The position numbers and the translations under genes were made by a program. This document shows positions 46,031 to 63,322 of a DNA stretch of 64,000 nucleotides, piece by piece. Position 1 is the stretch's first letter; each line of letters begins with the position of its first letter. The stretch spans positions 1-64,000 of the forward strand of contig DATJGD010000063.1 in NCBI GenBank assembly GCA_035495255.1, in the 5' to 3' direction. Source of the DNA: Bacteroidota bacterium (GTDB lineage Bacteria; Bacteroidota; Ignavibacteria; UBA10030; SZUA-254). The notes under the pieces were generated by a model that was not told the origin of the DNA, searched no databases, and worked only from the letters and a program-made list of their open reading frames with translations.

Positions 46031-46075
46031 AGCTATTTTGTTGCCTGTCGTTTTAATGAACATTGAATTTCGCAT

Positions 46076-47110
46076 ATGAACGTTTGTCTCGCTAGTTACC
46101 ACTCCGTGATGATGTTGAAGGGAGGACCCCGAACGCAGATCCTTCAGACCAAACGCTGCCTTGAGCAACTTGGTGTCAACGTCTCGCTCTTCCAATCGTG
46201 GGAAGAATTCAAAAAAGACCAGGTCGACCTCCTGCATCTGTTCGGCGCGAATATCGGGACGTATCATTTCGCGCGCGAAGTGCATAAGCTTGGAATCCCG
46301 ATGGCGGTTACGCCCATCTACTTTACACGACACTCACCGCTGTTTGTACGATCGGTTCTTGGGATCGACAGAGTCGTCCGTTCCGTAGCGAGAGGAACAT
46401 GGACCGATTACGGAATTGTCGCCGAGATCTGCCGGTGGGGGAAAGCAGTCCTTCCGAATACGCTTCGGGAAGCCCGCCTGGTGGAAAAGGGACTGGGAAT
46501 TCCAGAGGAGCTCATCACGGTCGTGCCGAACGGGGTCGACGCGCGGTTTGCCAATGGGGATCCGGCACTCTTCAAGAAGCAGTATGGGATTGAATCACCG
46601 TTCGTCCTGAACGTCGGCCATATCGGCCCCGAGAGAAAGAACGTGTTCCGGCTACTCCAGGCATTGAAGAAAGTGAACGTTCCTTCGGTCATCATCGGCC
46701 GGATTGAGGACAACGCCTACGGCAGAAAATGTCTCGAAGAGGCAAAGCGTAACCCGCGTGTCCTCGTTCTCGATTCGATTCCCAACGATTCGCCGCTCCT
46801 TGCATCTGCGTATGCCGGATGTGACGTTTTCGCACTGCCTTCTCAGTTCGAAACTCCGGGTATCGCGGCCCTTGAAGCCGGTCTCGCCGGCGCGAAAGTT
46901 GTCATCACGAAATACGGCGGCACCGAAGATTATTTTGGCCCCCTTGCCGAATACGTAGAGCCCACCTCCTGGGAGCTTATTCATCACGGGATCACGACTG
47001 CGCTGAATAAGCCGAAGGATGATGAGCTTCGTCACCGCATCCGGCAGGAATTCCTTTGGGAGAGCGTCGCGAAGAAGACGCTGGAAGCTTACCAGAAGAT
47101 CCTGAGATAA
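46076..47110 (+). CDS. Glycosyltransferase family 4
   Basis: It has a GT-B fold. The C-terminal block reads ETPGIAALEAGLAGAKVVIT. Confidence 0.75.
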   Translation: MNVCLASYHSVMMLKGGPRTQILQTKRCLEQLGVNVSLFQSWEEFKKDQVDLLHLFGANIGTYHFAREVHKLGIPMAVTPIYFTRHSPLFVRSVLGIDRVVRSVARGTWTDYGIVAEICRWGKAVLPNTLREARLVEKGLGIPEELITVVPNGVDARFANGDPALFKKQYGIESPFVLNVGHIGPERKNVFRLLQALKKVNVPSVIIGRIEDNAYGRKCLEEAKRNPRVLVLDSIPNDSPLLASAYAGCDVFALPSQFETPGIAALEAGLAGAKVVITKYGGTEDYFGPLAEYVEPTSWELIHHGITTALNKPKDDELRHRIRQEFLWESVAKKTLEAYQKILR

Positions 47111-47319
47111 CAGAAAGCACCCTGATCGGCTGTTCCTGCGATGGTGTGAACCTTTCGCGTTTGGATTGAACCCTCAACTCCTGCTTTGAATGGAGCTTTC
47201 GTGAGCCTGTCTTGAATTTCTTCCCCCTTCTCTCTATATTTTAGAAACATTCTTGATGATATTGTCCGTTGTTGAGCACTGTTAGTCAAATAGAATTGCA
47301 ACAGGCGGCAGGGGAATAC

Positions 47320-48279
47320 ATGATCCCCGCCGAGTTCGCCACCACCAGCAAGGATTCCCTCCAGAGCAGTTCGGGTGTAAAGTTCAGAGATTTCCGTAAA
47401 TCGCTCGAGCCCAGATTCGGCACCGTGTGGCTTCATATTGGTTTGGCGTATCTGGTACTGGTGCTCGTTGCGGCGGCGCTTGTGAATCTCACCGGCATCT
47501 CCATTTCCATTTCGATTCTCAGCGTCATCATCGGCGCCGGCCTCTTCGGATACACCATAGCGTTCATTCAGCTGTTTTTTCATGAGGCTGCCCACTTCAA
47601 TCTGGCGGCTGAGAAGAAGACAAGCGACGTGCTTGCCAACATCTTTGTCGGGGCGCTTGTCGGGCAGGATATCAGAAATTACCGCCCGATCCACTGGGGA
47701 CATCATAAGTGGCTCGGTTCAACGATGGACACAGAGCAAACGTACTTCGATCCGCTCAATACAAAATTTCTCATCGAGTCCCTTCTGGGGATCAAGGTGT
47801 TGAGTGTCCTTGCCAAGCGGGAAAAAAACCTCCAGGCGGAGAATGGCGAACGGAAATCGATGATCGGCTCGCAGCTCATCCTCGGGGCTTTGATCAACGG
47901 CGCGATCGTTCTCGGAAGCCTGTACGCACATCTCTGGGAGCTTGCCGCGGCCTGGACGATCGGAATGCTCATAGTCTTTCCGTTCTTTGCCTCCGTGCGG
48001 CAGGTCCTTGAGCACCGGGACGAACACGCCAGGCCGGATGTCGATTACCATACGGTCGCTCACGGGATTATCAACCGGATGTTCGGCGACGGCGTTGTTG
48101 CGGATACGCTGGGCGGTGCAGGGTTCAACCGTCATCTGCTTCACCACTGGGATCCGCAAGTCTCGTACACGCGGTTGAAGGATCTCGAGGCATATCTGAT
48201 GGAAACCCCTCTCGCAGGGGCCCTCAGGAGCCGGCAAACGACGTATTTCAGAACATTCGTCAAGCTCTTTAACAACTGA
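47320..48279 (+). CDS. Membrane fatty-acid desaturase family protein (three His boxes)
   Basis: The three His boxes are HEAAH, HWGHHKW and HLLHH, within 4 or more TM helices. An AGGGGA SD lies upstream of the ATG at 47320. Confidence 0.7.
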   Translation: MIPAEFATTSKDSLQSSSGVKFRDFRKSLEPRFGTVWLHIGLAYLVLVLVAAALVNLTGISISISILSVIIGAGLFGYTIAFIQLFFHEAAHFNLAAEKKTSDVLANIFVGALVGQDIRNYRPIHWGHHKWLGSTMDTEQTYFDPLNTKFLIESLLGIKVLSVLAKREKNLQAENGERKSMIGSQLILGALINGAIVLGSLYAHLWELAAAWTIGMLIVFPFFASVRQVLEHRDEHARPDVDYHTVAHGIINRMFGDGVVADTLGGAGFNRHLLHHWDPQVSYTRLKDLEAYLMETPLAGALRSRQTTYFRTFVKLFNN

Positions 48280-49208
48280 TGCCTTCGACGACAACGCCGC
48301 GCTGCCTTGCCTGTGGTGCGTCGAACGCTGAGCTCTGGACCACCGCGACGGACGCGGAATACAAATCGACCGATGAACGCTTCAGCCTGTACCGGTGCAA
48401 CTCCTGCGGTGTGCTCTTCATCGAGCCTGTTCCCCGCGACCGGCTGTCACAAATCTACCCGTCCAATTATTATTCCTTCCTTTCACAAAAAGATTCGTTT
48501 GTTAACAATGTAAAGAGACGGCTCGATGCCGGCCTCTTCAGGAAGATTCTCGGGAACATGCCCGGCGACTCACTCAATGCCCTTGATGTCGGAGGAGGTT
48601 CCGGCTGGGAGCTGTCGATCGCGCGCGAAGCCGATCGCCGCGTCAAGCATACGCAGGTAGTGGATTTCGATCCCGCTGCCGCCGAACTTGCCAAAAAAAA
48701 CGGGCATGAGTACTTCTGCGGACGCATCGAGGAATTTCAAACAGACAGGAAGTATGATTTCGTCCTCATGCTCAATCTCATTGAGCACGTCGAGCATCCG
48801 TTTGAGATATTAAGAAAAATCGAGAGCCTCCTCACTCCTCACGGCCGCATTCTCATCAAAACGCCGAATTACGATGCGCTCGACGCGCGGATATTCCGGA
48901 ATTCAAATTGGGGGGGATTTCATTGTCCGCGCCACTGGGTGATTTTCACTAAAGAAAGCTTTTATGAGATTGCTTCCCGCGCGGACCTTTCGGTCGCAGA
49001 GTTTTCCTATACCCAGGGCGCCCCTTTCTGGGCCTCGAGCACACTGTTTTGGATGGAGCGGCGCGGTTGGGTGAAGATTTCAAAGGAACGCCCCGTTATG
49101 TATCATCCCGCATTCTCGCTGCTGGGAGTATTCTTTGCCGCATTCGATTTTGTCCGGAAGCCATTCGCCAAGACATCCCAGATGTTTGTTGTCCTCGGGA
49201 AGAAATGA
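48279..49208 (+). CDS. Class I SAM-dependent methyltransferase with an N-terminal zinc ribbon
   Basis: CLACG..CNSCG is followed by methyltransferase motif I LDVGGGSGW. The start overlaps the desaturase stop as TGATG. Confidence 0.7.
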   Translation: MPSTTTPRCLACGASNAELWTTATDAEYKSTDERFSLYRCNSCGVLFIEPVPRDRLSQIYPSNYYSFLSQKDSFVNNVKRRLDAGLFRKILGNMPGDSLNALDVGGGSGWELSIAREADRRVKHTQVVDFDPAAAELAKKNGHEYFCGRIEEFQTDRKYDFVLMLNLIEHVEHPFEILRKIESLLTPHGRILIKTPNYDALDARIFRNSNWGGFHCPRHWVIFTKESFYEIASRADLSVAEFSYTQGAPFWASSTLFWMERRGWVKISKERPVMYHPAFSLLGVFFAAFDFVRKPFAKTSQMFVVLGKK

Positions 49209-49271
49209 CCCAACATTCTCTTTGATTCTGCCCAATTATTTTTGTATTTTGGATACAAAAAAAGACCGGAA

Positions 49272-50447
49272 ATGGCAGATCAAGACCAAGAATTTCAACA
49301 GAATCCTCCCGAATCAGCACCATCGGAGCCGCAGTTTCCCGCTCCTCCGCCTCCGGTTCAAGAACCTTCAGCGAGGACGGAACAACCGCCTCAGCAGCAG
49401 CAAGAACAACGGCAGGATCGGCGAAGGGACAGGAATCCCCGTAACCAGCGGCGTCACGACCAGCCGCAGGGACAGCGCCGCGAGCCGCGCCACGACCAGC
49501 AGCAGCACCGCCAGGGGGGACTGGAAATCTCCATTGTTATTCCGTTGTACAACGAAGAGCAATCGCTGCGTGAGCTTCACGAGAAGATTCGCAATGCGCT
49601 GCACCGGTTCAACCGGTATGAAATTATTTTTGTCGACGACGGCAGCACCGACGGGTCGTTCCGCGTCCTCCAGGAGCTTCGTCAGCGCGACCGTCGCGTA
49701 AAGATCATCCGCTTCCGCCGCAACTTCGGGAAGTCTGCAGCCCTCTCTGTGGGTTTTGCGCAGGCCGAAGGCTCGTTCGTGATCACCATGGATGCCGATC
49801 TCCAGGACGATCCCAACGAGATACCCTCACTTGTTAATGAGCTGAAGAAAGGTACCGACCTGGTCTCCGGCTGGAAGAAGAAGCGCCGCGATCCGATCTC
49901 CAAGACGATTCCATCGAAGTTTTTCAACTTCGTCACTTCGGTGATGACCGGGATCCGGCTTCATGATTTTAACTGCGGCCTGAAAGGCTATAAGAAGGAC
50001 GTCGTCAAGGAAGTGCGGATTTACGGGGAGCTCCACCGCTACATTCCCGTGCTTGCGCATTGGTTGGGATTTAAGGTCGGTGAAATTCCTGTTCAGCACC
50101 ATGCCCGGAAATACGGCAAGACAAAATTTGGGTTCGGGAGATTCTGGAAAGGATTTTTGGATCTTCTTACAGTGCTTTTTACGACGCGGTACCTACAGCG
50201 TCCGCTCCATCTCTTCGGGTTCTGGGGAATCGTTTTCTTGCTGGCCGGCACTGCGATCGACGGCTATCTTGTCTTCCTGAAATTTGTCGAAGGCTTCTCC
50301 TTGAGCAACCGTCCGCTCTTTACCGCCGGCATACTTCTTATTATCGTCGGGGTGCAGTTTATATCGATCGGACTGATCGGTGAAATGATTTCGAAAACGC
50401 GCTCCACTTCGGAAAAGGAATATTCGATCCGCGAGGTTTGGAAATAA
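49272..50447 (+). CDS. GT2 polyprenol-phosphate glycosyltransferase (DPM1/GtrB/ArnC-like) with a ~100 aa Q/R/P-rich low-complexity N-terminal extension. An alternative TTG start lies at 49242.
   Basis: The GT2 core reads ISIVIPLYNEE..VDDGSTDGS..DADLQD. There are two C-terminal TM helices. The N-terminal extension reads EQPPQQQQEQRQDRRRDRNPRNQRRHDQPQGQRREPRHDQQQHRQ. Confidence 0.7.
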   Translation: MADQDQEFQQNPPESAPSEPQFPAPPPPVQEPSARTEQPPQQQQEQRQDRRRDRNPRNQRRHDQPQGQRREPRHDQQQHRQGGLEISIVIPLYNEEQSLRELHEKIRNALHRFNRYEIIFVDDGSTDGSFRVLQELRQRDRRVKIIRFRRNFGKSAALSVGFAQAEGSFVITMDADLQDDPNEIPSLVNELKKGTDLVSGWKKKRRDPISKTIPSKFFNFVTSVMTGIRLHDFNCGLKGYKKDVVKEVRIYGELHRYIPVLAHWLGFKVGEIPVQHHARKYGKTKFGFGRFWKGFLDLLTVLFTTRYLQRPLHLFGFWGIVFLLAGTAIDGYLVFLKFVEGFSLSNRPLFTAGILLIIVGVQFISIGLIGEMISKTRSTSEKEYSIREVWK

Positions 50448-50514
50448 ACTTCCTGCCCTTCGCATTGGGACATTTCGAACAGACCCTTCAGTTTCGGATG
50501 TTACGCTCCCTCGC

Positions 50515-51609
50515 ATGACCATCACCGTCAACGACCTCAAATACGATTGCCGGCATTTCCGCGGCGACATCCCCTGCAAGCCGAACAAGCAGCACGGCGT
50601 CCACTGTAAGGACGACCAGGGGAACGACTGTGCGTATTACGATCGCACCGATAAACGGATTCTCATCATTAAGCTCGGCGCCCTGGGAGATGTCGTCAGG
50701 ACGACCCCGCTTCTGCGAAAGCTCAAACAAACCGATCATGCCGCCGAAATCTGGTGGCTCACGCTCGAACCTTCGGTCGTCCCGAAAAGCGTCGACCGGA
50801 TTCTTTCCTATACGGCACAAAGCCTCGCTACGCTGCACGCGACTCCGTTCGACACCATTTACTGCCTGGATAAAGATAAAGAAGCGTGCGCATTATGCGC
50901 GCAGCTTACCGCGCGTGTGAAGCGCGGGTTCACCCTGCGCGACGGGAAATGCGTTCCCTGCGATACGGCCGCGGAACACAAATATCTTACCGGCGTCTTT
51001 GACGATCTCAGCAAGGTAAACACAAAAAGCTACCAGCAGGAGATTTTTGAAATATGCGGGTTTGAATTTTCCGGCGAGCAGTATATCATGCCCGAGCTTC
51101 AGGAGTACGTCTGGAAATTCCCGAAGAAGAAGACGATCGTCGGCCTGAATACAGGATGCGGCGGACGCTGGACGTCAAGATTGTGGCCGCAGGCATACTG
51201 GGTATCGCTGGCCCGCCGCCTGAAAAAGGCGGGGCTCACGCCGCTTCTCCTCGGTGGAGAACAGGAGCACGCGAAGAATCTTCAGATTGCAAAAGCCTCC
51301 GGCGCTCTTTATCCCGGGCATTTTTCGCTGAATCAGTTCATGAGCGAAGTCGGTCAGTGCGATCTTGTCGTCACCGCGGTAACGATGGCGATGCATATTG
51401 CGATCGGGTACGGCAAGAACATCGTCCTGTTCAATAATATCTTTAATAAACACGAGTTCGAGCTGTACGGGAAGGGCGAAATCCTCGAACCCGATTTCGA
51501 GTGCGACTGCTTTTACTCGCCCACGTGCCCGAACAATTGCATGCAGTATCTTTCGGTCGATACCGTGTTTGAATCCTGCACGCGTCTTCTGAAGCTCCGC
51601 GCCAGATGA
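50515..51609 (+). CDS. Glycosyltransferase family 9 (ADP-heptose:LPS heptosyltransferase-like) with a Cys-rich N-terminus
   Basis: KLGALGDVVRTTPLLRKLK is the classic GT9 N-terminal motif. The length of 364 aa matches the family. Confidence 0.75.
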   Translation: MTITVNDLKYDCRHFRGDIPCKPNKQHGVHCKDDQGNDCAYYDRTDKRILIIKLGALGDVVRTTPLLRKLKQTDHAAEIWWLTLEPSVVPKSVDRILSYTAQSLATLHATPFDTIYCLDKDKEACALCAQLTARVKRGFTLRDGKCVPCDTAAEHKYLTGVFDDLSKVNTKSYQQEIFEICGFEFSGEQYIMPELQEYVWKFPKKKTIVGLNTGCGGRWTSRLWPQAYWVSLARRLKKAGLTPLLLGGEQEHAKNLQIAKASGALYPGHFSLNQFMSEVGQCDLVVTAVTMAMHIAIGYGKNIVLFNNIFNKHEFELYGKGEILEPDFECDCFYSPTCPNNCMQYLSVDTVFESCTRLLKLRAR

Positions 51610-53912
51610 CGAAAGGCAAACCTCTGACCGCGCCGCCGAAGGCGTCCAGAACGTTAGCGGGAATCAAAGACTGGCATGTCGTGAGCGCCATTGTTCTTCT
51701 CACCGTTATTTTCTTCCGGAACATAATTTTCAAAAGCGCGTTCTTCTGGGAAGATTTCATGTACTTTTACTATCCCGCCCGCAACTTCGCGGCTGTCTCG
51801 ATGGCGGGGGGTGAGTTGCCGCTCTGGAATCCGTTCACGCTAAACGGGATGCCGTTCCAGGCTGACATTCAAACAGCCCTGTTCTATATCCCCAACATGC
51901 TCCTCACGCTCTTCGTGAGCGGGGGAAAACTCTCGTTCTACTGGCTCGAGCTGGAGATCGTCGGCCATTATGTGATCGCCGGAGTGGGTATGTACTACCT
52001 GGCAAAATCGTACGGCCTCGAACGAATCTACGCCTTCTTTGCCGCACTCGTCTTCATGTTCTCCGGCTATGCGATCACGAGGGCGATCCATCAGCCGATG
52101 ATTTGCGAAACTGCATGGCTTCCCCTGATCATTCTGTTGTTCAGAAAGATGATGAAGGAGAAGTCGGCCGTCGCAATGATTCTCTGCGCCGTCGTCCTCG
52201 GCCACGCAATCCTCGCGGGGTTTCCGCAGCTGACGCTCTATATCTATTTCCTGCTGTTCCTCACCTTTGCAGTCGAGTGCATCGCTCGCTTGCGTTCGGG
52301 GGGAGTGAAGACAGCGTTTCCTGTCGCGGCGCTCGCCGGGGGTGTTGTCGTCATTTCTCTGGCTCTGGCGGCGATTCAACTCCTGCCGACAATTGAGCTT
52401 GCTCCGTATACGCAGCGGGCCGAGATGACCTACGAAAAATCTCTCGATGGCTCGCTGAGCTGGCCCGGCCTGATCACGCTCATCGTGCCGAAATTCTTCG
52501 GCGCGTACGGTGCGCAGGGTTCGGATTACTGGATGCAGGGATCGTATGGCCAGTATTGGGAAACGGTCGTGTATATCGGGATTCCCGCGCTCGTTTGTGT
52601 GGTGTTCGCATCGCTGCTTATGCGCAAAAATGCGGACGTAATGTTTCTCTTCTGTGTCGTTGTCTTTTCCCTCTTGTACGCGCTGGGGGACAGCTTCTTC
52701 CTGCACAAATTATTTTTTACCCATGTGCCGGCATTTAACAAGTTTAGGGAGCCGGGACGCCTGTCATTTCTCTGGACCTTCGCCGCCGCTATTCTTGCCG
52801 GCTTTGGCCTTCGGCAATGCGTGGAAGAATCACGGATTGCAAAGAAGTCATTGCAGAAGATTCTTTTTGGTGTAGCGCTTGCCGGCGTAGCGCTGTACCT
52901 GGCGGTACAGCAGGGCTGGCTTCAAGAGGTTCGCGGAGCCGACAGCGCCCAGGTTCATCAGATCGCGAGCTCGGCGACCACGACAGCGATGATCTTTATT
53001 CTTGGTGTGTGTGCCATACTTTTCCTCCGGTCGAGAAACGCCTTGTCAGGTACGGCCGCAATCGCACTTCTCTTCGGAGTGCAATTCATCGATATGCATG
53101 TCTTCGGGTTCGACCAGAACAACGGGACAACCAATCCCGATGATTATTTCGACAGGACTGCGAGTATTGTCACGATGGTTAAGGAGCAGGGAAGAGACGA
53201 ATATTTCCGCGTGAATTCCAGGGCGGGAAACGCCATGCTCCTCGATCGCAACCAGGGCATGATCGACCGGATTTTCACCATGGAAGGCTATTCGTCGCTC
53301 GTCCTTCAGCGTGTCTACCCGCCGGCAAAGGACCGGGATCACGTGAACAATCTTATGAACGCGAAATATTACGTCGATGTTGATGCGCAGCGGCGGACGA
53401 TGAGCCTCGGACGCTCGACAACATATGTCCCCCGCGCCTACATGGTCTATCATACCGATGTTATCAGGGACGATGCGGAACAGAAGGCGTTTATGTCGGG
53501 CGACGTGTTCAATCCCCGCAGCACAGTCGTGCTGGACGACCAGCCGGAAGTCCCGCTGACGGCCCCGGATACCACGACGCCCCCTCCGGTGAGGATCAGC
53601 TCGTACGGATTAAATACGATCGAACTCGATGTGACGACTCCGAAAAAAGGATATCTTTCCCTGAGCGAAATCTATTATCCCGCGTGGAAAGCGTATGTTG
53701 ACAATGTCGAGCATCCGGTCTATCGCGCCAACTGGAATCTTCGCGCCGTCTTCGTCGATGCCGGAACGCATCACGTCAGCCTCCGCTATGAATCAGGGAG
53801 TTTTCACCGCGGCATCTGGATCACACTCGGTGCATTCCTGCTCTGCATCATCGGCCTCGTCGTGCTCGGCCGAAAAAAGCAGCCGAAAGAACCAGCGAAA
53901 GGAGTTGCCTGA
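51606..53912 (+). CDS. YfhO-family polytopic membrane protein (GT-C-like glycosyltransferase using polyprenol-P-sugar donors)
   Basis: 768 aa. It has about 13 TM helices, a large C-terminal extracytoplasmic domain and a final TM helix. It sits immediately upstream of a GtrB-like GT2, as in the CsbB/YfhO arrangement. Confidence 0.6.
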   Translation: MTKGKPLTAPPKASRTLAGIKDWHVVSAIVLLTVIFFRNIIFKSAFFWEDFMYFYYPARNFAAVSMAGGELPLWNPFTLNGMPFQADIQTALFYIPNMLLTLFVSGGKLSFYWLELEIVGHYVIAGVGMYYLAKSYGLERIYAFFAALVFMFSGYAITRAIHQPMICETAWLPLIILLFRKMMKEKSAVAMILCAVVLGHAILAGFPQLTLYIYFLLFLTFAVECIARLRSGGVKTAFPVAALAGGVVVISLALAAIQLLPTIELAPYTQRAEMTYEKSLDGSLSWPGLITLIVPKFFGAYGAQGSDYWMQGSYGQYWETVVYIGIPALVCVVFASLLMRKNADVMFLFCVVVFSLLYALGDSFFLHKLFFTHVPAFNKFREPGRLSFLWTFAAAILAGFGLRQCVEESRIAKKSLQKILFGVALAGVALYLAVQQGWLQEVRGADSAQVHQIASSATTTAMIFILGVCAILFLRSRNALSGTAAIALLFGVQFIDMHVFGFDQNNGTTNPDDYFDRTASIVTMVKEQGRDEYFRVNSRAGNAMLLDRNQGMIDRIFTMEGYSSLVLQRVYPPAKDRDHVNNLMNAKYYVDVDAQRRTMSLGRSTTYVPRAYMVYHTDVIRDDAEQKAFMSGDVFNPRSTVVLDDQPEVPLTAPDTTTPPPVRISSYGLNTIELDVTTPKKGYLSLSEIYYPAWKAYVDNVEHPVYRANWNLRAVFVDAGTHHVSLRYESGSFHRGIWITLGAFLLCIIGLVVLGRKKQPKEPAKGVA

Positions 53913-53914
53913 AC

Positions 53915-54832
53915 ATGTATTCGATCGTCATACCGATCTATAACGAGCAGGAAACGATTCCCGAACTCTATCGCCGCCTGAAACCTGTCCTCGACGGGTT
54001 CGACGCTCCTTCCGAAGTCATCATCGTCGACGACGGAAGCCAGGACGAAACGTTCTCGATGCTCAGCGATCTCAACAAACAAGACCCGAGAATCAAGGCG
54101 CTCCGGTTTTCCAGAAATTTCGGCCACCAGACGGCGATCAGCGCCGGCATCGATGCGGCAACCGGCGATGCCGTGATCCTTATGGACGGCGACCTTCAGG
54201 ATCCCCCTGAAGTGCTGCCGCAGTTCATCGCGAAGTGGAAAGAAAAGTTCGACGTCGTCTACGCGATTCGGAAAAAGCGTAAAGAAAATATCTTTAAGCG
54301 AACGGCGTACGCGCTATTTTACCGTTTGTTGAAAAGGCTCTCCTATCTCGACATTCCGCTCGATTCCGGCGACTTCTGCCTCATGGACCGTAGAGTGGCG
54401 GAGACCATAAAGTCGATGCGCGAGCGCGCGCGATTTGTGCGCGGCCTGCGGACGTGGGCAGGGTTCCGCCAATCAGGCCTTGAGTACGAGCGCGATTACC
54501 GTTTTGCCGGCGATCCAAAGTATACCTTTTCCAAACTTCTTCGCCTGGCATACGACGGGCTGTTCTCGTTCTCCACCGTTCCGCTGCGGCTCGCCGTGTA
54601 CACCGGATTTTCCTTTTCGGGAATCGCGTTCCTCGGAGGCCTGCTGATCATTTACCGCCGGCTGGCGCACGGCATCGATGTCGTCGGATGGGCATCGACG
54701 ATCGTCATCATTATTTTCCTCGGCGGCGTCATTCTCGGAACGCTCGGGATCATCGGGGAATATATCAGCCGCATTTATGAGGAAGTCAAGAACCGTCCGC
54801 TCTACGTTGTCCAGGACAAAATAGGATTCTGA
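53915..54832 (+). CDS. GT2 polyprenol-phosphate sugar synthase (GtrB/CsbB/ArnC-like)
   Basis: YSIVIPIYNE, VDDGSQD and DGDLQD motifs are present. There are two C-terminal TM helices. Confidence 0.8.
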   Translation: MYSIVIPIYNEQETIPELYRRLKPVLDGFDAPSEVIIVDDGSQDETFSMLSDLNKQDPRIKALRFSRNFGHQTAISAGIDAATGDAVILMDGDLQDPPEVLPQFIAKWKEKFDVVYAIRKKRKENIFKRTAYALFYRLLKRLSYLDIPLDSGDFCLMDRRVAETIKSMRERARFVRGLRTWAGFRQSGLEYERDYRFAGDPKYTFSKLLRLAYDGLFSFSTVPLRLAVYTGFSFSGIAFLGGLLIIYRRLAHGIDVVGWASTIVIIIFLGGVILGTLGIIGEYISRIYEEVKNRPLYVVQDKIGF

Positions 54833-54836
54833 GCCG

Positions 54837-55565
54837 ATGGAAGATTTTCTTTATCCCCACTTCTACAAAGTAGAGAACGAGCACTGGTGGTTTGCCGCCC
54901 GTCAGCGGATCATCTGGGAGTTTATGGAGAAAAAACTGCGACTTCCGGCAGGGACGAAGCTCCTGGATGTCGGCTGCGGCACGGGTGCAATCCTCGATAT
55001 GTTCTCAAAAAAGTACAATGCCTACGGTCAGGATATCGCCCCGCAGGCGATTGAATTCTGCGCGCAGCGCGGACTGACGAATTTATTCTGCGGCACGCTT
55101 GACGCGTTTCCAAAGGAGTACGGCACATTCGATATCATCACAACGCTCGACGTCATCGAACACATCGACAACGACGCCGGCGCGCTCGCCTCGATGCATG
55201 CGCTGCTCAACGCGCGCGGTTACCTTCTCATCGCTGTCCCCGCGTTTCCTGCCCTGTGGGGAACCCACGATGTCGTCACGCACCACAAACGCCGGTACGT
55301 CAAGAAAACGCTGCGCGCGGTGGTCGAGCAGTCAGGCTTTCAGATAGAATACATGACGTATTTTAACTTCTTTCTGTTTCCCGTGGCCTACGTGCGGAGA
55401 ACGGTTGCGAGAATCACCGGCGCCGCCGAAGCGAGCGACATGGAGATTCCGTCGAAGCCCGTCAACAGCATCCTGCGCGGAGTATTTGAGTTTGAAAAGT
55501 ATCTCGTCCCGTGGCTGAAGTTTCCGTTCGGGCTCTCGCTTCTCTGCGTCGCACGAAAAGTTTAA
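54837..55565 (+). CDS. Class I SAM-dependent methyltransferase
   Basis: Motif I LDVGCGTGA is present. The length of 242 aa is typical. Confidence 0.75.
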   Translation: MEDFLYPHFYKVENEHWWFAARQRIIWEFMEKKLRLPAGTKLLDVGCGTGAILDMFSKKYNAYGQDIAPQAIEFCAQRGLTNLFCGTLDAFPKEYGTFDIITTLDVIEHIDNDAGALASMHALLNARGYLLIAVPAFPALWGTHDVVTHHKRRYVKKTLRAVVEQSGFQIEYMTYFNFFLFPVAYVRRTVARITGAAEASDMEIPSKPVNSILRGVFEFEKYLVPWLKFPFGLSLLCVARKV

Positions 55566-55591
55566 TGAAGGCCGGGCGAAGGGATTTCTGA

Positions 55592-56707
55592 ATGAAGATT
55601 GTCATCCTCGGAACTGCGTATCCTCTTCGCGGCGGCATCGCTCATTTTAACGCTCTTCTCGCGACACATCTTGCGAAACACCATTCCGTAGAAACGATAA
55701 CGTTTAAGCGTCAGTATCCTTCGTTCTTGTTCCCCGGGAAGACACAGGATGAAGGGGGAGATCTCGCCGGTGTCCGGCCCGCGCCCCAGCTTATGGACTC
55801 GATCAATCCTTTCAACTGGATCAGCGTGGCGTGGAAGGTGAAGAGGCTGAAGCCCGATCTCCTGGTCTTCAAATACTGGCTGCCGTTCTTTGGCCCATGT
55901 TTCGGAACGATTGCCCGTCTTGTCAAGAAGGGATCCTCCGTAAAAGTATTGTATGTGTGCGATAACATTATCCCCCACGAGCGCCGCCCCGGGGATGTCG
56001 TGTTCACAAAGTATGCATTCAAGCCGGCCGACTTTTTCATCGTACAATCCGATGCGGTGGAGCGGGATCTTAACGAGCATTTCCCGGGGGCCGCGTACCG
56101 GAAAGTCCCGCATCCGGTCTACGAAAATTTTGGAGCAAAGATTGACAAGGCCGAAGCACGCCGGCAGCTGGGGATAACCGAACCGAAGGTGATCTTATAC
56201 TTCGGATATGTACGCGCATACAAAGGGCTTTTGGTACTCATTGAAGCGATGAAGCACCTTGAGGATGTCGTGCTGCTTGCCGTCGGAGAGTACTATGACG
56301 ATGAGGCGAAATACCGGCAGAAGGTAAAGGATCTCAACCTCGAATCCAGGGTGCGATTTGTTTCGGACTATGTCCCCAACGACGAAGTAGCGAAGTATTT
56401 CTGCGCTTCCGACGTGGTTGTTCTTCCGTATCTCTCGGCGACTCAGAGCGGCATCATCCAGATTGCCTATAATTTCGATAAACCTGTGATCGCGACGGAT
56501 GTCGGCGGCCTCGGTGAGGTCGTGGTCGACCAGAAAACCGGGTTTATCGTCGCTCATAATAGTGTCGATGCGCTGGTGCGCGCTGTCCGGCAGTATTACG
56601 ACGAAAACAAAGAGCCCGAGTTTTCCGAAAACGTGCGGCTCGAAAAGAAGAAATACTCCTGGGAGAACTTCGTCGCCGTCATCGACGAGCTCGTGGCAAA
56701 ATCCTAG
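55592..56707 (+). CDS. Glycosyltransferase family 4
   Basis: It has a GT-B fold. The C-terminal block reads GIIQIAYNFDKPVIATDVGGLGEVV. Confidence 0.8.
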   Translation: MKIVILGTAYPLRGGIAHFNALLATHLAKHHSVETITFKRQYPSFLFPGKTQDEGGDLAGVRPAPQLMDSINPFNWISVAWKVKRLKPDLLVFKYWLPFFGPCFGTIARLVKKGSSVKVLYVCDNIIPHERRPGDVVFTKYAFKPADFFIVQSDAVERDLNEHFPGAAYRKVPHPVYENFGAKIDKAEARRQLGITEPKVILYFGYVRAYKGLLVLIEAMKHLEDVVLLAVGEYYDDEAKYRQKVKDLNLESRVRFVSDYVPNDEVAKYFCASDVVVLPYLSATQSGIIQIAYNFDKPVIATDVGGLGEVVVDQKTGFIVAHNSVDALVRAVRQYYDENKEPEFSENVRLEKKKYSWENFVAVIDELVAKS

Positions 56708-56886
56708 CCTTTTGACCGCATCTCCCCCTGGAATGGGGGTGAATTTCCTGCTAAATCTTCCGAATCGGAGTATTGACTCTCTCTTCGGGGAAGTCTATAT
56801 TCTTCCTGATTCTCTCTACCTCAATTCTCTCGCCGGGCGGCGGGAGAATATTCTTTCTCACAGGACGTTTCAGATGGGTACACATC

Positions 56887-58761
56887 ATGTTGAAGACTTC
56901 GCGGCTGCAACTGTTGGTACTTTTGTTTCTCGGTATCGCAACACGAGCTTACGCTGACACCCCGCGGGGGTTCGTTGCTTCGGTTCACCTGGACACGACC
57001 GCCTTTACGGATATATCTGCGGGAATGACCGGTGCCGTGTTTAGTTCCGGCGCTTGGGTCGATTATGATAACGACGGAGATCTCGATGTCTTTATTTCAG
57101 GGATTTCCCCGGGCTTCCAGTATTTTTCAAAGATCTACCGTAACGACGCCGGAAGCTTTACCGATATCAATGCCGGGCTTGCCGGTGTTCAATCCGAGCA
57201 CAATGTTGCATGGGGAGATTACGATAATGACGGAGACCTGGATCTTTTGCTGATGGGTCAGGCCGGCCCTCCGGTTTCACTGGCAATAACGAAGATTTAT
57301 CGAAATGACGGCGGCGTTTTTGTCAATATCGGCACTCCAATCCCGGGCCTGATGTACGGTTCGGCTGCCTGGGGAGACTATGACAATGACGGCGACCTGG
57401 ATATTCTTGTCACTGGATCGCCGGATCAGGGACTTTCGTTCTTCTCAAAGGTTTACAGGAACGACAACGGATCTTTCGTCGATATCAATGCAGGGCTTCC
57501 GGGGGTTTGGGGAAGTTCTGCGGTCTGGGGCGACTACGACAACGACGGGGACCTGGATATTTTTCTGAATGGGTACGGTGATCTTGGAGGTACGAGCCTG
57601 ATATTCAGAAACACGAACGGTGTTTTTACCAGTATTGGAGGTGGACTCGGCCTCAAGAATAGCGGCCAACTTGCAGTGGGGGATTTTGATAACGATGGCG
57701 ACATCGACGTTCTGTGCTCGGGAGATCACTTCGGAGCAGTAAACGCATTTACGACAATTTACAGAAATGACAACGGCACATTTGTCGACACGCATCCCGG
57801 TCTCGTGCAAGTAGAGGAAAGCGCGCAGGCATGGGGGGATTACGACAATGACGGCGACCTTGATATTCTCATCGCGGGATATCGTGACTCCGACGGAGTG
57901 TTTTTCACCAAGGTGTACAGGAACGACGGTGGGATCTTCACAGACATTGGCGCCGACCTGCCGGGTACGGCGAACGGCACCGTAGCCTGGGGCGACTACG
58001 ACAACGATGGAGATCTTGACATTCTTGTCGTCGGCGGGACAAGCGATACAGCCCCGTTTAGTCCGATCGCGCGAATTTACCGGAACAATCTCGGTTCGAA
58101 TACGTTTTCACCCAACTCTACGCCGACTATCCCTGCGAATCTCGCGTCCGCCGTGCAGGCTAACTCCGTCCGCTTGTCGTGGGACCGTTCGACTGATAGC
58201 CAAACCGATGCGCACGCTCTCACGTATAATCTCCGCGTCGGAACTCTTCCATCAGGCAGCCAAACGATCTCTCCAATGGCGAACGGAGCCACCGGATACC
58301 GGCAGATCGTCCAACTCGGAAATGCAAACCTTGACAGTTCGTGGACACTTAAGGGTCTGCCGGCAGGGACATACTACTGGAGCGTGCAGGCGATCGATAA
58401 TGCCTTTGCCGGGTCGCCATTCGGCGGAGAACAAAGCTTCGTAATAAGTCCAATGGGCGTTTCCGAGATCCCAGGATCGATACCCAGCGTGACCAGACTT
58501 GTTCAAAATTATCCAAATCCATTTAACCCGACGACGACGGTTCCGTTCGATCTCGCGCACGACGGTTCGGTGAGGATTGAGATCTATAACATCCTCGGTC
58601 AGAACGTCAAAAAGTTGGCGGAATCGGATCTCCATGCGGGACGATATGAGGCTGCGTTCAACGGATCCGATCTGCCAAGCGGCATCTACTATTGCAGGAT
58701 GACATTGCAGAGCGGAGGGAGCTCGTTCAATGAAATGAAAAAACTTGTTATGATGAAATAG
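56887..58761 (+). CDS. Secreted FG-GAP/VCBS-repeat protein (CRTAC1/ASPIC-like) with an FN3-like domain and a T9SS C-terminal sorting domain
   Basis: It has a signal peptide. There are about 8 WGDYDNDGDLD repeats. The C-terminus reads YPNPFNPTTTVPFDL..IEIYNILGQNVKKL..GIYYCRM, which is a Por_Secre_tail. Confidence 0.75.
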   Translation: MLKTSRLQLLVLLFLGIATRAYADTPRGFVASVHLDTTAFTDISAGMTGAVFSSGAWVDYDNDGDLDVFISGISPGFQYFSKIYRNDAGSFTDINAGLAGVQSEHNVAWGDYDNDGDLDLLLMGQAGPPVSLAITKIYRNDGGVFVNIGTPIPGLMYGSAAWGDYDNDGDLDILVTGSPDQGLSFFSKVYRNDNGSFVDINAGLPGVWGSSAVWGDYDNDGDLDIFLNGYGDLGGTSLIFRNTNGVFTSIGGGLGLKNSGQLAVGDFDNDGDIDVLCSGDHFGAVNAFTTIYRNDNGTFVDTHPGLVQVEESAQAWGDYDNDGDLDILIAGYRDSDGVFFTKVYRNDGGIFTDIGADLPGTANGTVAWGDYDNDGDLDILVVGGTSDTAPFSPIARIYRNNLGSNTFSPNSTPTIPANLASAVQANSVRLSWDRSTDSQTDAHALTYNLRVGTLPSGSQTISPMANGATGYRQIVQLGNANLDSSWTLKGLPAGTYYWSVQAIDNAFAGSPFGGEQSFVISPMGVSEIPGSIPSVTRLVQNYPNPFNPTTTVPFDLAHDGSVRIEIYNILGQNVKKLAESDLHAGRYEAAFNGSDLPSGIYYCRMTLQSGGSSFNEMKKLVMMK

Positions 58762-58820
58762 GATGGAAAAGACCGTTCGTTAAATCATCAGGAATTTTCT
58801 TATATTCAGGAGAGTTTGCT

Positions 58821-59588
58821 GTGGGAAACCGCGGAAACTCTCTTTTTTTAATGACAACACCCACTCAACATACCCCTGCGCGCGGAAAACCTGCCGACTA
58901 CGGCCAGGAGCTTGTTAAACGGCGATTCCGCTTAACTTCCTCGTTGGTAGATTTGCGCAACAAAACCGTCCTGGACTTTGGCTGCGGTAACGGTGCGCAA
59001 ACCATCGAATTTCTTGGCTCGGGATGCAGGATCACCGGAGTGGACATCGACCAGCAGGACCTCGATGTTCTCAAAGAATATCTTCAGTCGAACAATCTCG
59101 ATAGCATCGTGGCGGTACGTTATGACGGCTCGACGCTTCCATTGGAATCCAGTTCCTTCGACGTAATATTAAGTTACGAAGTCATCGAGCATGTTCAGAA
59201 CGAATCTCAAACGCTGGAAGAGTTGTCTCGGGTTTTGAAACCGGGGGGTGAAATGGTTATTTCGGTCCCCAACAAGGGATGGGTGTTCGAAACGCATGGC
59301 GCCAACCTGCCTCTGCTCCCATGGAACAGGGTTCCGTTCTTTTCCTGGCTGCCTCATTCGATCCACAGCCGCTTCGCGAAGGCAAGAATCTACAAGAAGA
59401 ACGAGATCATACGTCTTCTCGCCGATCACCGGTTCGATATTCTCACAACAATGTATATCACAGCGCCAATGGATGTCGTGAAGGCTCCCTGGCTGAAGAA
59501 TCTCCTTCGGTCGACCGTTTTCACCGGAGATACGACGATGGTTTCGATGTTGTCGACCTCGATTCTCATTCACTGCCGGAAGAACTAA
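58821..59588 (+). CDS. Class I SAM-dependent methyltransferase (GTG start supported by an AGGAGA SD; an alternative ATG lies at 58851)
   Basis: Motif I LDFGCGNGAQT is present. Confidence 0.7.
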   Translation: MGNRGNSLFLMTTPTQHTPARGKPADYGQELVKRRFRLTSSLVDLRNKTVLDFGCGNGAQTIEFLGSGCRITGVDIDQQDLDVLKEYLQSNNLDSIVAVRYDGSTLPLESSSFDVILSYEVIEHVQNESQTLEELSRVLKPGGEMVISVPNKGWVFETHGANLPLLPWNRVPFFSWLPHSIHSRFAKARIYKKNEIIRLLADHRFDILTTMYITAPMDVVKAPWLKNLLRSTVFTGDTTMVSMLSTSILIHCRKN

Positions 59589-59611
59589 TTCTTATCGAAT
59601 CTCACAAGAGC

Positions 59612-60733
59612 ATGAAGATAGCAGTCGTATTTGGAACACGCCCGGAGGCGATCAAGATGGCCCCGATCGTCAAAGAACTCGAGCGGCGAAAGCTCGACCA
59701 TGTCGTTATCGTTACGGCGCAGCACCGGCAGATGCTTGATCAGAAGCTGGAAGTTTTCGGAATCGTGCCCAAGTACGATCTGAACGTCATGCAGGCGAAC
59801 CAGGATCTCTTCCATGTCACGACCGCCGTGCTGAATGAAATCAAGCCGATCCTCGTCCGCGAAAAACCGGATGTCGTGCTGGTGCAGGGCGATACGACGA
59901 CGACATTCGCGGTAAGCCTCGCGGCATTTTATTTGAAAATTCCTGTGGGCCACGTCGAAGCGGGCCTGCGGACATGGGACAAACACAATCCCTATCCCGA
60001 AGAGATCAACAGGCAGCTGACGACGCGTCTGACAGAATTTCATTTTGCGCCCACTTCCTGGGGACGCAATAATCTTCTCAAAGAAGGAGTAAACCCGGAA
60101 AGCATCTACGTTACCGGGAACACCGTTATCGATGCCCTCCTTATGATGGTCGATCAAAGCTATGCGTTCACCGAACCTGAATTGAAGTCCATCGACTTTT
60201 CAACACGACGAGTATTGCTCCTGACATCGCATCGCCGCGAAAATTTCGGTGATCCGATGCGCGAAGTGTTCGGCGCCTGCCGTGAACTTGTAAAGTCCAA
60301 TCCCGATGTTGAGCTCGTCTATCCCGTTCATCCGAATCCGAACGTCCAGAAGGCGGCACACGAAATATTTGACGGCGTCGAACGGACGCATTTGATCGCG
60401 CCGATGGAATACCGCCCCTTTGTCCAGCTGATGAATAAATCCTACCTCATCCTGACGGACTCGGGAGGCGTGCAGGAGGAAGCACCCTCTCTCGGCAAGC
60501 CTGTGCTTGTCCTCCGGACGACGACGGAGCGTCCCGAAGCGATTGACGCCGGAACAGCGAAGCTCGTCGGCACCTCCGCGAGCCGCATTATCGGGGAGGC
60601 GCAGAAACTCCTGACGGATAAACGGGAATACGACTCGATGGCGACAAAGGCCAATCCGTACGGTGACGGCAAGGCCGCAGGCAAGATCGTCGACATACTG
60701 GTAGAGAAATTCGCTCAGCAGCCGCACGCCTGA
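59612..60733 (+). CDS. wecB: UDP-N-acetylglucosamine 2-epimerase (non-hydrolysing). The listed ORF 59279..60733 is over-extended upstream.
   Basis: MKIAVVFGTRPEAIKMAP.. matches the WecB family along its full length, including the HVEAGLRT and DSGGVQEEA blocks. Confidence 0.9.
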   Translation: MKIAVVFGTRPEAIKMAPIVKELERRKLDHVVIVTAQHRQMLDQKLEVFGIVPKYDLNVMQANQDLFHVTTAVLNEIKPILVREKPDVVLVQGDTTTTFAVSLAAFYLKIPVGHVEAGLRTWDKHNPYPEEINRQLTTRLTEFHFAPTSWGRNNLLKEGVNPESIYVTGNTVIDALLMMVDQSYAFTEPELKSIDFSTRRVLLLTSHRRENFGDPMREVFGACRELVKSNPDVELVYPVHPNPNVQKAAHEIFDGVERTHLIAPMEYRPFVQLMNKSYLILTDSGGVQEEAPSLGKPVLVLRTTTERPEAIDAGTAKLVGTSASRIIGEAQKLLTDKREYDSMATKANPYGDGKAAGKIVDILVEKFAQQPHA

Positions 60734-61614: not shown

Positions 61615-61620
61615 TCACCC

Positions 61621-62612: not shown

Positions 62613-62743
62613 CCACCTCCGCGTCAACCTTTGAACGCTCGCGAACTTCGTCACACAGGTGCTTGATATTCTTTCGTTTTTTTTCTATTTTAAGCGACAA
62701 TACATGAACAACAAGGCATTCTCATCTCAATTTCTCATCGTAA

Positions 62744-63313: not shown

Positions 63314-63322
63314 AGGTTGTCT

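Follow-up and report, generated by a model that had tools for sequence, protein, structure and literature searches.

In Bacillus subtilis, the CsbB/YfhO system acts on lipoteichoic acid (LTA), with a C55-P-sugar as the proposed donor and with transfer occurring outside the cytoplasmic membrane (PMC5836110). Its counterparts in Listeria are Lmo2550, a CsbB-like GT2 enzyme, and Lmo1079, a YfhO homolog, which function in the glycosylation of wall teichoic acid (WTA) (PMC5836110). The streptococcal GtrB/PgtC2 system and PgfS/PgfM1 act on proteins (PMC12041528); their YfhO-family GT-C enzymes use Und-P-Glc or Und-P-GalNAc supplied by GtrB- or PgfS-type GT2 enzymes. Three-component systems exist in Gram-negative bacteria, including GtrA/GtrB/GtrC for O-antigen glucosylation, ArnC/ArnE-F/ArnT for modification of lipid A with Ara4N, and a pentofuranose system with GT136 (PMC11127046). 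Periplasmic glycosylation by two-enzyme and three-component systems is already well known in Gram-negatives, and the pair described here is an ordinary-looking one.

The YfhO/GT2 pair and its genomic setting

The pair belongs to an uncultured Ignavibacteria-like bacterium and is embedded in a large surface-sugar gene cluster within the window, that is, the whole stretch of 64,000 nucleotides that was analysed. The main features are the following, GT2up and GT2dn being the GT2 genes upstream and downstream of yfhO:

37213..64000, + strand: surface-glycan locus of about 27 kb, all genes co-directional, continuing past the window end
49242..50447, + strand: GT2up, second polyprenyl-phosphate GT2, ArnC-like, up to 401 aa (PF00535, 127.8 bits)
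50515..51609, + strand: GT9-fold GT-B glycosyltransferase, 364 aa (PF01075)
51606..53912, + strand: YfhO-family GT-C glycosyltransferase, 768 aa (PF09586)
53915..54832, + strand: GT2dn, GtrB/CsbB/PgfS-like polyprenyl-phosphate glycosyltransferase, 305 aa (PF00535)
54837..55565, + strand: SAM-dependent methyltransferase between GT2dn and GT4d (Methyltransf_23, _11 and _12 matches)
55592..56707, + strand: GT4d, GT4 glycosyltransferase (PF00534, PF13692)

The locus starts with a TMEM260-like GT-C gene (37213), an SDR, two GT4 genes, a Wzx/MOP flippase (43101), a deacetylase and another GT4, and continues through an FA_desaturase-like protein and a methyltransferase to GT2up, GT9, YfhO and GT2dn. 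A methyltransferase, GT4d, an FG-GAP/T9SS-CTD protein, a methyltransferase, WecB, a methyltransferase, a GT2 and RmlC follow, and no intergenic gap exceeds 184 nt. Judged by Wzx, WecB, RmlC and the several methyltransferases, this resembles a Wzx-type locus for a surface polysaccharide or a protein glycan. Unlike in the Gtr and Arn systems, a GtrA/GtcA-like small flippase gene (GtrA/SMR type) is absent from the cluster, so the pathway cannot be called complete, as the original prediction had it. The diderm FCB setting proposed there is backed by the protein with a T9SS C-terminal sorting domain encoded inside the cluster, by a TonB receptor and an OmpA protein encoded in the window, by a 100% match of YfhO to the NCBI entry "YfhO family protein" from a Bacteroidota bacterium, and by relatives that are Ignavibacteria MAGs. 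Since such a diderm host has neither LTA nor WTA, the acceptor must differ from that of CsbB/YfhO.

The GT9, YfhO and GT2dn reading frames lie on the plus strand where they had been placed, and all three proteins score above the Pfam gathering cut-offs for their families. GT9 ends within the beginning of YfhO, the stop codon of the one overlapping the start codon of the other in the sequence ATGA (51606-51609), in agreement with the proposed coupling. The YfhO stop codon (TGA, 53910-53912) and the GT2dn ATG (53915) are adjacent as described; the spacing is 2 nt and not 3, a difference of one at most. YfhO matches PF09586 with 53.5 bits (cut-off 28.5), a partial match over profile positions 77-511 of 835 that marks a distant sequence relation to the CsbB/YfhO system. 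The protein has approximately 12 TM helices, with a beta-rich domain in the periplasm (about 503-735) and after it a last TM (736-754). A Glu-Asp motif taken as catalytic, E49-D50 (FFWEDF), is placed just after TM1, in a loop assigned to the outside on the basis of the K/R-rich N-terminus; among 28 orthologs, D50 is invariant and E49 is at least 90% conserved. The best Foldseek matches of the AF2 model (pLDDT 81.8) are ArnT (top), EmbB, AglB, AftA, PMT and PglB, and agree with a predicted ArnT-like GT-C fold.

GT2dn reaches 120 bits against PF00535 (cut-off 23.3). Its GT-A domain carries DGD as catalytic motif, and two TMs (228-246 and 263-281) make up the C-terminal part. Over its full length it is homologous to the Synechocystis GtrB of known structure (5EKP, 290 bits). 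Its best NCBIfam match is PgfS (262 bits), followed by ArnC (185 bits), both below the equivalog cut-offs. A relative (L026) carries an SDR epimerase/dehydratase fused to GT2dn, which echoes PgfE beside PgfS; the differences from PgfS systems are the score, which stays below the PgfS cut-off of 500, and the Gram-negative host. Unlike for PgfS/PgfM1 and GtrB/PgtC2, no Ser/Thr-rich acceptor was identified here.

As in CsbB/YfhO and the Listeria system, a GT-A GT2 enzyme with two C-terminal TMs and a DXD motif is encoded beside a YfhO-family GT-C. Unlike the two-gene CsbB/YfhO operon, the pair has an inverted order, with yfhO first, and sits inside the 27-kb glycan locus. Read from sequence, it resembles Gtr, Arn and GT136 in combining a polyprenyl-phosphate sugar synthase with a GT-C for modifying an already assembled glycoconjugate in the periplasm of a diderm, and ArnC and GtrB are top matches of both GT2 enzymes. 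However, the GT-C is of the YfhO family, unlike GtrC, ArnT and GT136, and unlike phage-borne systems the pair is chromosomal and clade-conserved.

The original prediction overlooked GT2up, a GtrB/ArnC-like gene immediately 5' of GT9. GT2up comprises a Q/P/R-rich N-terminus of about 90 aa, a GT-A domain with DAD and two C-terminal TMs (321-339 and 362-380); translation may in fact begin 3' of the TTG. It scores 196.6 bits for ArnC and 172 bits for PgfS in NCBIfam, and 174 bits for ArnC and 141 bits for GtrB among PDB structures. It is 32% identical to GT2dn. Almost all ortholog loci have GT2up 5' of GT9, at 57-89% identity.

The GT9-like protein matches PF01075 with 28.6 bits (cut-off 22) through its C-lobe only (residues 203-301). 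Foldseek top matches of its AF2 model (pLDDT 81.2) are 3TOV, WaaC and WaaF (E 1e-13 to 1e-11), in agreement with a predicted WaaC/WaaF-like fold; the GT-B architecture and the N-lobe G-D catalytic motif are shared with these enzymes. Unlike WaaC and WaaF, it reaches none of the NCBIfam equivalog cut-offs for heptosyltransferase I, II or III, and the Asp of the D-S/T-G-x-M-H donor-binding motif is lost in its clade. On these grounds, an assignment as LPS heptosyltransferase I, II or III is not supported.

Co-occurrence of the pair and the surrounding core

Co-occurrence was assessed in 43 evaluable GT9-selected metagenome loci and 21 evaluable YfhO-selected species-level genomes. In the GT9-selected set, GT2dn is present in all six loci with a YfhO ortholog and in none of the 37 without one, while in the YfhO-selected set it abuts YfhO in 14 of the 21 genomes, usually at a spacing of -4 to +24 nt. 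This supports the proposal that YfhO and the GtrB-like GT2 form a linked pair, in line with the combination of a GT2 and YfhO known from CsbB/YfhO and from streptococcal GtrB/PgtC2 (PMC5836110, PMC12041528). The perfect co-occurrence comes essentially from one clade and not from independent events: on the GT9 tree, the loci with YfhO and GT2dn form a single subclade, with sister clades in which GT9 and GT4 are directly adjacent. YfhO lacks an adjacent GT2dn in the other seven genomes, where GT2up is nearly always present; these GT2dn-less loci are dispersed over the YfhO tree, which points to losses from an ancestral YfhO/GT2dn pair.

The association of the pair with GT9 is of a different kind. 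GT4d occurs in 28 of the 43 loci, of which 22 lack a YfhO ortholog; a GT4 gene stands directly 3' of GT9 without YfhO in 22/43, and where the YfhO/GT2dn insertion is absent, the next gene after GT9 is usually GT4d. Methyltransferases recur beside GT4d in related loci. Conversely, YfhO adjoins GT2up in two loci that have no GT9 (L019, L023). The wider conserved core is thus GT2up-GT9-GT4-methyltransferase, mostly without YfhO, and the pair looks like a clade-specific insertion into it. GT9 is a neighbour within this core and not a specific partner of YfhO and GT2dn, so the proposed triad reduces to a pair.

Proposed route and competing readings

We infer, with a little more confidence than an even chance would give, that YfhO and GT2dn form a two-enzyme periplasmic glycosylation module inserted in the core operon. 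As the likely donor synthase for YfhO, GT2dn, anchored by its two C-terminal TMs, would load polyprenyl (undecaprenyl) phosphate on the cytoplasmic side with a single sugar taken from a nucleotide sugar. The lipid-linked monosaccharide would then be flipped across the membrane by a flippase, and YfhO, with its Glu-Asp motif in the first periplasmic loop, would pass the sugar to an acceptor in the periplasm, most likely the product of the surrounding locus, whether glycan or glycoconjugate. GT9 would belong to the core operon, outside the lipid-linked monosaccharide route.

The near-constant GT2up in genomes where YfhO has no adjacent GT2dn leaves GT2up as a candidate donor synthase, either in place of GT2dn or beside it. 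It is conceivable, though rather unlikely, that YfhO receives its donor from GT2up, as a polyprenyl-P-monosaccharide or one extended by the GT9-like and GT4 enzymes, and that GT2dn feeds another GT-C, such as the TMEM260-like protein at 37213 or the PMT_2 proteins of relatives. Where the flank is long enough, practically all ortholog loci have GT2up 5' of YfhO; GT2up directly abuts YfhO in the two loci lacking GT9, and the window contains two GT-C and two polyprenyl-phosphate GT2 enzymes. Sister clades combine GT2up-GT9-GT4 with other GT-Cs (PMT_2, a distant 850-aa YfhO) in or near the same slot, which looks like GT-C replacement around a constant GT2up; in one locus (L004), a PMT_2 GT-C gene follows GT2dn and could equally be its partner. 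Nevertheless, GT2up-GT9-GT4 often occurs without a GT-C within 6 kb (L093-L095, L103-L106, L110, L112), whereas GT2dn is always accompanied by YfhO in the 43 GT9-selected loci. No TMEM260-like homolog was seen near GT2dn elsewhere, in flanks too short to cover the equivalent position.

GT4 enzymes, WaaG being an example, take part in building LPS core. The original prediction named LPS core or another glycoconjugate as target; taken literally for LPS, it would have GT9, YfhO and GT2dn act jointly. On the cytoplasmic side GT9, with GT4, would extend Kdo-lipid A by inner core, after which YfhO would attach one sugar to lipid A or LPS core in the periplasm, by an ArnC/ArnT-like route. The heptosyltransferase fold of GT9, the role of GT4 enzymes in LPS core, ArnT as the best structural match of YfhO and the closeness of GT2up to ArnC are consistent with this scheme. 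The sole pointer to LPS core as acceptor, a weak hint, is one distant locus (L147) in which a GT9-like gene (50% identity) is directly beside lptF/G and two GT4 genes. The scheme is nonetheless improbable, as GT9 fails the heptosyltransferase cut-offs, has lost the donor-motif Asp and possesses a pair of Cys4 motifs that WaaC and WaaF do not show. In addition, no lpx, kds, waaA or ADP-heptose genes were found within the window, the locus looks to be of the Wzx type, and YfhO and GT9 are separable across loci.

For Bacteroidales, a 2026 preprint predicts YfhO to be the OTase still missing from the general O-glycosylation system (10.64898/2026.07.27.740950). Transfer en bloc by YfhO of an oligosaccharide made by the locus and flipped on its lipid by Wzx (43101) to periplasmic or T9SS-secreted proteins would suit the Wzx, the many GTs and the FG-GAP/T9SS-CTD protein of the locus, the T9SS cargo genes beside many ortholog loci and the OSTs (AglB, PglB, STT3) among YfhO structural matches, but is very doubtful, as characterised YfhO proteins all take monosaccharides linked through a monophosphate (PMC5836110, PMC12041528), a monosaccharide donor is also what the close and ancestral association with a GtrB-like enzyme points to, Wzx is not the NCBIfam O-glycosylation flippase equivalog (27 bits, cut-off 720), and most loci with the same GT core lack YfhO.

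Cysteine motifs of the GT9-like protein

The locus is unusual in having no priming phosphoglycosyltransferase and in encoding a GT9 protein whose subfamily has conserved two Cys4 motifs. The second motif, in the C-lobe, consists of C330, C338 and C342 with the less conserved C332, at a position comparable to the iron finger of the BAHT-family enzyme TibC (Cys339/342/358/370; PMC4358343); metal binding is putative, and unlike TibC the protein has neither a beta-barrel nor a thumb. The first, N-terminal motif (C12/C21/C31/C39, C-x8-C-x9-C-x7-C) is an extra element relative to WaaC, WaaF and TibC, and both clusters are conserved down to about 30% identity.

Organization of the glycan locus

The three genes singled out by the original prediction lie exactly where it placed them, all on the forward strand, and the Pfam models proposed for them (PF01075, PF09586 and PF00535) each score above the gathering threshold on the respective product. 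They belong to a much larger, co-directional glycan locus whose intergenic gaps do not exceed 184 nt.

Features of the glycan locus in the window (coordinates, strand, description)
37213-64000 (window end), +, glycan locus, 27 kb
37213-39966, +, TMEM260-like/DUF2723 protein, 917 aa, first gene of the locus
47269-48279, +, FA_desaturase-family membrane protein
49242-50447, +, GT2up, ArnC-like GT2 directly upstream of GT9
50515-51609, +, GT9-like protein, 364 aa
51606-53912, +, YfhO, 768 aa
53915-54832, +, GT2dn, GtrB-like GT2, 305 aa
55592-56707, +, GT4d, GT4 glycosyltransferase
56773-58761, +, FG-GAP repeat protein with a T9SS C-terminal sorting domain
59279-60733, +, WecB open reading frame as mechanically called

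The locus opens with the TMEM260-like GT-C, an SDR, two GT4s, a Wzx/MOP flippase and a deacetylase, and continues with a GT4, the FA_desaturase-like protein, a methyltransferase, GT2up, GT9, YfhO and GT2dn. These are followed by a methyltransferase, GT4d, the FG-GAP/T9SS protein, a methyltransferase and a WecB equivalog, and then by a further methyltransferase, a rhamnosyltransferase-like GT2 and RmlC. The GT9 stop and YfhO start share an ATGA overlap, which reflects the general compaction of the operon, and only two bases separate the YfhO stop codon TGA (53910-53912) from the ATG of GT2dn. The called WecB frame overlaps the upstream methyltransferase by 310 nt; because its domain begins only at residue 133 and orthologs measure 353-368 aa, the true start is probably near 59630, and a product beginning there reaches 497 bits against the wecB equivalog model. 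The FA_desaturase-family protein in the middle of the locus (PF00487, 81 bits; with GntB, an arginine hydroxylase, as a weak match) is unusual for a sugar cluster and is 74% identical to its counterpart in the closest relative, L001.

The TMEM260-like protein (PF11028, 167 bits; about 11 TM helices) is a second GT-C candidate, and the locus thus contains two GT-Cs and two polyprenyl-phosphate GT2s. It was considered as a recurrent partner of GT2dn and rejected, since no homolog lies near GT2dn in any of the compared loci, the flanks of which are too short to reach the equivalent position. The diderm, FCB-type setting assumed for the cluster is supported by the Por_Secre_tail (T9SS) protein within it and, outside the cluster, by genes in the window for a TonB-dependent receptor and an OmpA-family protein. 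An OmpA-family protein encoded at 18768-20135 (+) has four calcium-binding repeats of the bacterial thrombospondin type-3 (TSP3_bac) kind.

YfhO and the polyprenyl-phosphate glycosyltransferases

YfhO-family genes are widely annotated in Bacteroidota, and to our knowledge no enzyme of this family has been characterised in a diderm bacterium. The protein encoded here scores 53.5 bits against PF09586 (cut-off 28.5), aligned to profile positions 77-511 of 835 only, and the same domain is present in 120 of 120 homologs among the matches listed. Its exact match in NCBI is annotated as 'MAG TPA: YfhO family protein [Bacteroidota bacterium]', and hundreds of full-length relatives with 37-63% identity occur in Ignavibacteria- and Chlorobi-labelled MAGs. 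About 12 TM helices are predicted, together with a beta-rich domain of about 230 residues and a last TM helix that acts as a C-terminal anchor. A search of PDB sequences with the YfhO profile gave no match at E values up to 1, and placement among the GT-Cs comes from fold comparison alone: with the AF2 model (pLDDT 81.8, pTM 0.86) as query, the top Foldseek matches are exclusively GT-C enzymes, with ArnT first, followed by EmbB, AglB, AftA, AftD, PMTs and PglB/STT3. YfhO is therefore a polytopic protein within the 8-13 TM range of the GT-C fold, according to its TM map, AF2 model and Foldseek matches. Members of the family have an acidic motif akin to DXD (DXD, EXD, DEX and similar) in a loop outside the cytoplasm, represented here by E49-D50 in FFWEDF, immediately after TM1. 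Across 28 orthologs D50 never varies and E49 is conserved to at least 90%, and this loop is placed in the periplasm because the N-terminus is rich in K and R. The best-supported reading makes YfhO a putative transferase that uses a polyprenyl-phosphate sugar as donor and glycosylates an extracytoplasmic acceptor.

GT2dn, with a DGD motif and a PF00535 score of 120 bits (cut-off 23.3), is a bona fide GtrB/CsbB-type enzyme. It is homologous over its full length to Synechocystis GtrB (5EKP; 290 bits, residues 3-304) and ends in two TM helices (228-246 and 263-281). The earlier account of the cluster had overlooked GT2up, which scores 127.8 bits on PF00535, has a DAD motif and C-terminal TM helices at 321-339 and 362-380, and shares 32% identity with GT2dn; among solved structures it is closest to ArnC (174 bits) and GtrB (141 bits). 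The GT2up N-terminus is a low-complexity extension of about 90 aa, rich in Q, P and R, with an uncertain TTG start. Equivalog-level identity to PgfS or ArnC, which would fix the sugar, is reached by neither enzyme: the best NCBIfam match of GT2dn is streptococcal PgfS (262 bits against an equivalog cut-off of 500; ArnC 185 against 529), and that of GT2up is ArnC (196.6 bits against 529). In one Ignavibacteriota MAG (L026, 11791-13935), the GT2dn ortholog has an SDR domain fused to its N-terminus and measures 714 aa, which suggests that an SDR step makes the nucleotide-sugar donor. An attempt to read the sugar from this fusion was abandoned, as the SDR is only generically 4,6-dehydratase/epimerase-like and does not fix its identity.

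Periplasmic glycosylation by a GtrB-like synthase and a GT-C enzyme is a well-established process in Gram-positives and Gram-negatives alike. CsbB and YfhO act on lipoteichoic acid (PMC5836110), GtrB/PgtC2 and PgfS/PgfM1 on Ser/Thr-rich proteins (PMC12041528), and the three-component Gtr, Arn and pentofuranose systems operate in Gram-negatives (PMC11127046). On balance, YfhO and GT2dn are likely to form a two-enzyme system of this kind. GT2dn would charge polyprenyl phosphate with one sugar at the cytoplasmic face, a flippase would move the lipid-linked sugar across the membrane, and YfhO would pass the sugar to a periplasmic acceptor, most plausibly the glycan of the enclosing locus. The pathway was originally described as complete, a description that the cluster does not support for the flippase step: it contains no small GtrA-like frame, although a flippase may be encoded elsewhere in the genome. 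Specifically, a hydropathy screen of the whole window for frames of 70-230 aa with at least three predicted TM helices, as expected of a small GtrA/GtcA/SMR-type flippase, flagged only 19311-19952 and 27262-27807, neither of them in the 37-64 kb region. The only flippase-like gene, the Wzx/MOP gene at 43101, is not conserved alongside YfhO and GT2dn. Searches for priming phosphoglycosyltransferases (PGTs) with a WbaP-type query and E. coli WecA found none in the window and none in the ortholog loci (L001-L029, relatives on the YfhO side, and L086-L165, metagenome loci selected by GT9; 6-8 kb flanks). A PGT may still be encoded past the window end or at another place in the genome. With no WbaP- or WecA-type PGT in the window, the two GtrB/ArnC-like GT2s are the sole lipid-phosphate-directed enzymes of the 27-kb locus.

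Conservation of the pair and of the surrounding core

Gene neighbourhoods were compared in two sets. The first, selected by YfhO, comprises the best 80 species-representative genome loci and five contigs. Within the orthologous clade of this set, the gene directly preceding YfhO is GT9 in about 20 of 23 evaluable loci; GT2up is located upstream of YfhO in essentially every locus whose flank is long enough, and GT2dn directly follows YfhO in 14 of 21. Distant YfhO relatives from Chloroflexota and other phyla (23-30% identity) are without these neighbours. In two loci (L019 and L023), GT2up and YfhO are directly adjacent, GT9 being absent from the space between, and in three others (L010, L018 and L022) PMT_2 (ArnT/PMT-like) GT-C genes are inserted between GT2up and GT9; the same conserved core is accompanied by a PMT_2 GT-C gene at 11271-12872 in L004. 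In L002, L004, L006, L009, L021 and L022, the gene after YfhO or GT2dn encodes a protein of about 640 aa that has TPR repeats at its C-terminus. YfhO is the least conserved member across the orthologous clade (37-63% identity, against 60-81% for GT9 and 57-89% for GT2up).

The second set consists of 80 metagenome loci selected by GT9 in a scan with an alignment of nine sequences, 43 of which are evaluable, with at least 3.3 kb downstream of GT9. Typically the order is GT2up-GT9-GT4d-methyltransferase. Only six of the 43 carry a YfhO ortholog, and GT2dn is found in the same six only, while 22 have GT4d without a YfhO ortholog. Other loci contain a different polytopic enzyme, either a PMT_2-type GT-C (L096, L101, L108 and L109) or a distant YfhO of 850 aa (L111, L113 and L151). 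A six-TM protein of about 400 aa that follows the core in L094, L095 and L103 was considered as a GT-C or ligase and proved to be an M48 peptidase.

On the GT9 tree, almost every YfhO-positive locus falls into a single subclade, and on this ground many independent insertions of YfhO and GT2dn were rejected; for the same reason, a Fisher-type significance of the split of 6/6 versus 0/37 does not reflect independent events. On the YfhO tree, loci without GT2dn are scattered, and several losses of GT2dn are therefore indicated. As read from these sequence comparisons, YfhO and GT2dn appear to be an ancestral pair of a single Ignavibacteria-like clade, in which they were inserted into an older core, between its GT9 and GT4d genes. 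Of the GT9-YfhO-GtrB triad first proposed, the pairing of YfhO with GT2dn stands, but GT9 does not belong to it: this gene is part of a wider core that mostly lacks YfhO, and is a positional neighbour of the pair rather than a specific partner.

These neighbourhoods also bear on the choice of donor enzyme. GT2up exceeds GT2dn in conservation and in constancy of linkage to both GT9 and YfhO, and as the more constant neighbour it could supply the product used by YfhO, leaving GT2dn to serve another GT-C. With GT2dn confined to the YfhO-positive loci of the GT9-selected set, this assignment is considered unlikely. The stable pairing of YfhO with a GtrB-like synthase argues for a lipid-monophosphate monosaccharide donor, as in Gram-positives, at least for these FCB-group YfhO proteins.

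As for the acceptor of the YfhO/GT2dn pair, the FG-GAP/T9SS-CTD proteins could be candidates, or their presence could be a coincidence in T9SS-rich genomes. Large T9SS-CTD proteins recur beside orthologous GT2up-GT9 loci (L002, L004, L009, L018, L019, L021, L023, L104, L109, L112, L121, L134, L160 and L164).

The cysteine-rich GT9-like subfamily and other readings

The GT9-like protein combines a GT9 profile match (PF01075, 28.6 bits against a cut-off of 22, confined to the C-lobe) with a confidently modelled GT-B fold (AF2, pLDDT 81.2), for which Foldseek ranks the GT9 structure 3TOV, WaaC and WaaF best (E 1e-13 to 1e-11) and TibC further down. It falls far short of the heptosyltransferase equivalogs, scoring 51 against 185 (I), 35 against 135 (II) and 18 against 170 (III). 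The N-lobe G-D motif is retained, and the C-lobe donor motif D-(S/T)-G-x-M-H is not: the window clade has T-A-V-T-M-A-M-H, compared with N-D-S-G-P-M-H in 3TOV. More distant family members keep G-D-T-L-A-L-H, so the donor-motif Asp is lost in the window clade only.

This subfamily (264 representatives at E <1e-30 in a 50%-clustered library, with named members in Ignavibacteria, Oligoflexia and Ca. Ancaeobacter) is Cys-rich, uncharacterised and locked to an ArnC-like GT2 and a GT4. One cluster is N-terminal (C12/C21/C31/C39, spaced C-x8-C-x9-C-x7-C) and the other C-terminal (C330/C338/C342 plus C332). All but C332, which is invariant only among closer orthologs, are kept down to about 30% identity, giving seven conserved Cys. 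The C-terminal cluster occupies a position comparable to that of the iron finger of TibC (Cys339/342/358/370; PMC4358343), and by this analogy the clusters may be metal sites, an idea that serves as a lead.

The sole positive hint for the earlier model, in which GT9, YfhO and GT2dn act on the LPS core, comes from L147 (4456-9645), where an LptF/LptG LPS-export permease gene is directly followed by a GT9-like gene (50% identity), with two GT4s downstream of the latter. This is the only LPS-related neighbourhood seen for the subfamily, and with the heptosyltransferase models unmatched, the LPS-core model is doubtful.

A bolder proposal gives the core a pathway of its own, in which an oligosaccharide is assembled on polyprenyl monophosphate and then transferred en bloc by a GT-C to protein or LPS. 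The ArnC-like GT2 may prime, GT9-like and GT4 enzymes extend, methyltransferases decorate and the MOP flippase export, with transfer perhaps by an interchangeable GT-C (YfhO here; PMT_2 or a distant YfhO in other clades). The GT9 subfamily would then bind metal, and its substrate would be a lipid-linked sugar instead of Kdo-lipid A. The haloarchaeal AglJ/AglG/AglI/AglE-AglB route of N-glycosylation is the archaeal counterpart and a precedent for assembly and transfer of monophosphate-linked oligosaccharides. This scheme has a low probability.

Least probable of all is that YfhO is an O-oligosaccharyltransferase (OTase): a 2026 preprint (10.64898/2026.07.27.740950) proposes, by prediction only, that Bacteroidales YfhO is the long-sought OTase of Bacteroidota O-glycosylation, and the stable association of YfhO with a GtrB-like synthase in the clade described here constrains that idea; no Bacteroidales sequence occurs among the best 80 genome loci related to YfhO.

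A defined, clade-conserved YfhO/GtrB pair in a diderm bears on the question of what YfhO does in Bacteroidota. In other respects the pair is an unsurprising variant of periplasmic glycan decoration, with its gene set corrected here, and the core of ArnC-like GT2, Cys-rich GT9, GT4 and methyltransferase, uncharacterised and widespread in Ignavibacteria-like lineages, may outweigh it in interest. The region immediately before the glycan locus contains two signal peptidase I genes in tandem (Peptidase_S26; 34464-35351 and 35359-35985, both +), flanked by lepA and a HemN-like radical SAM gene.
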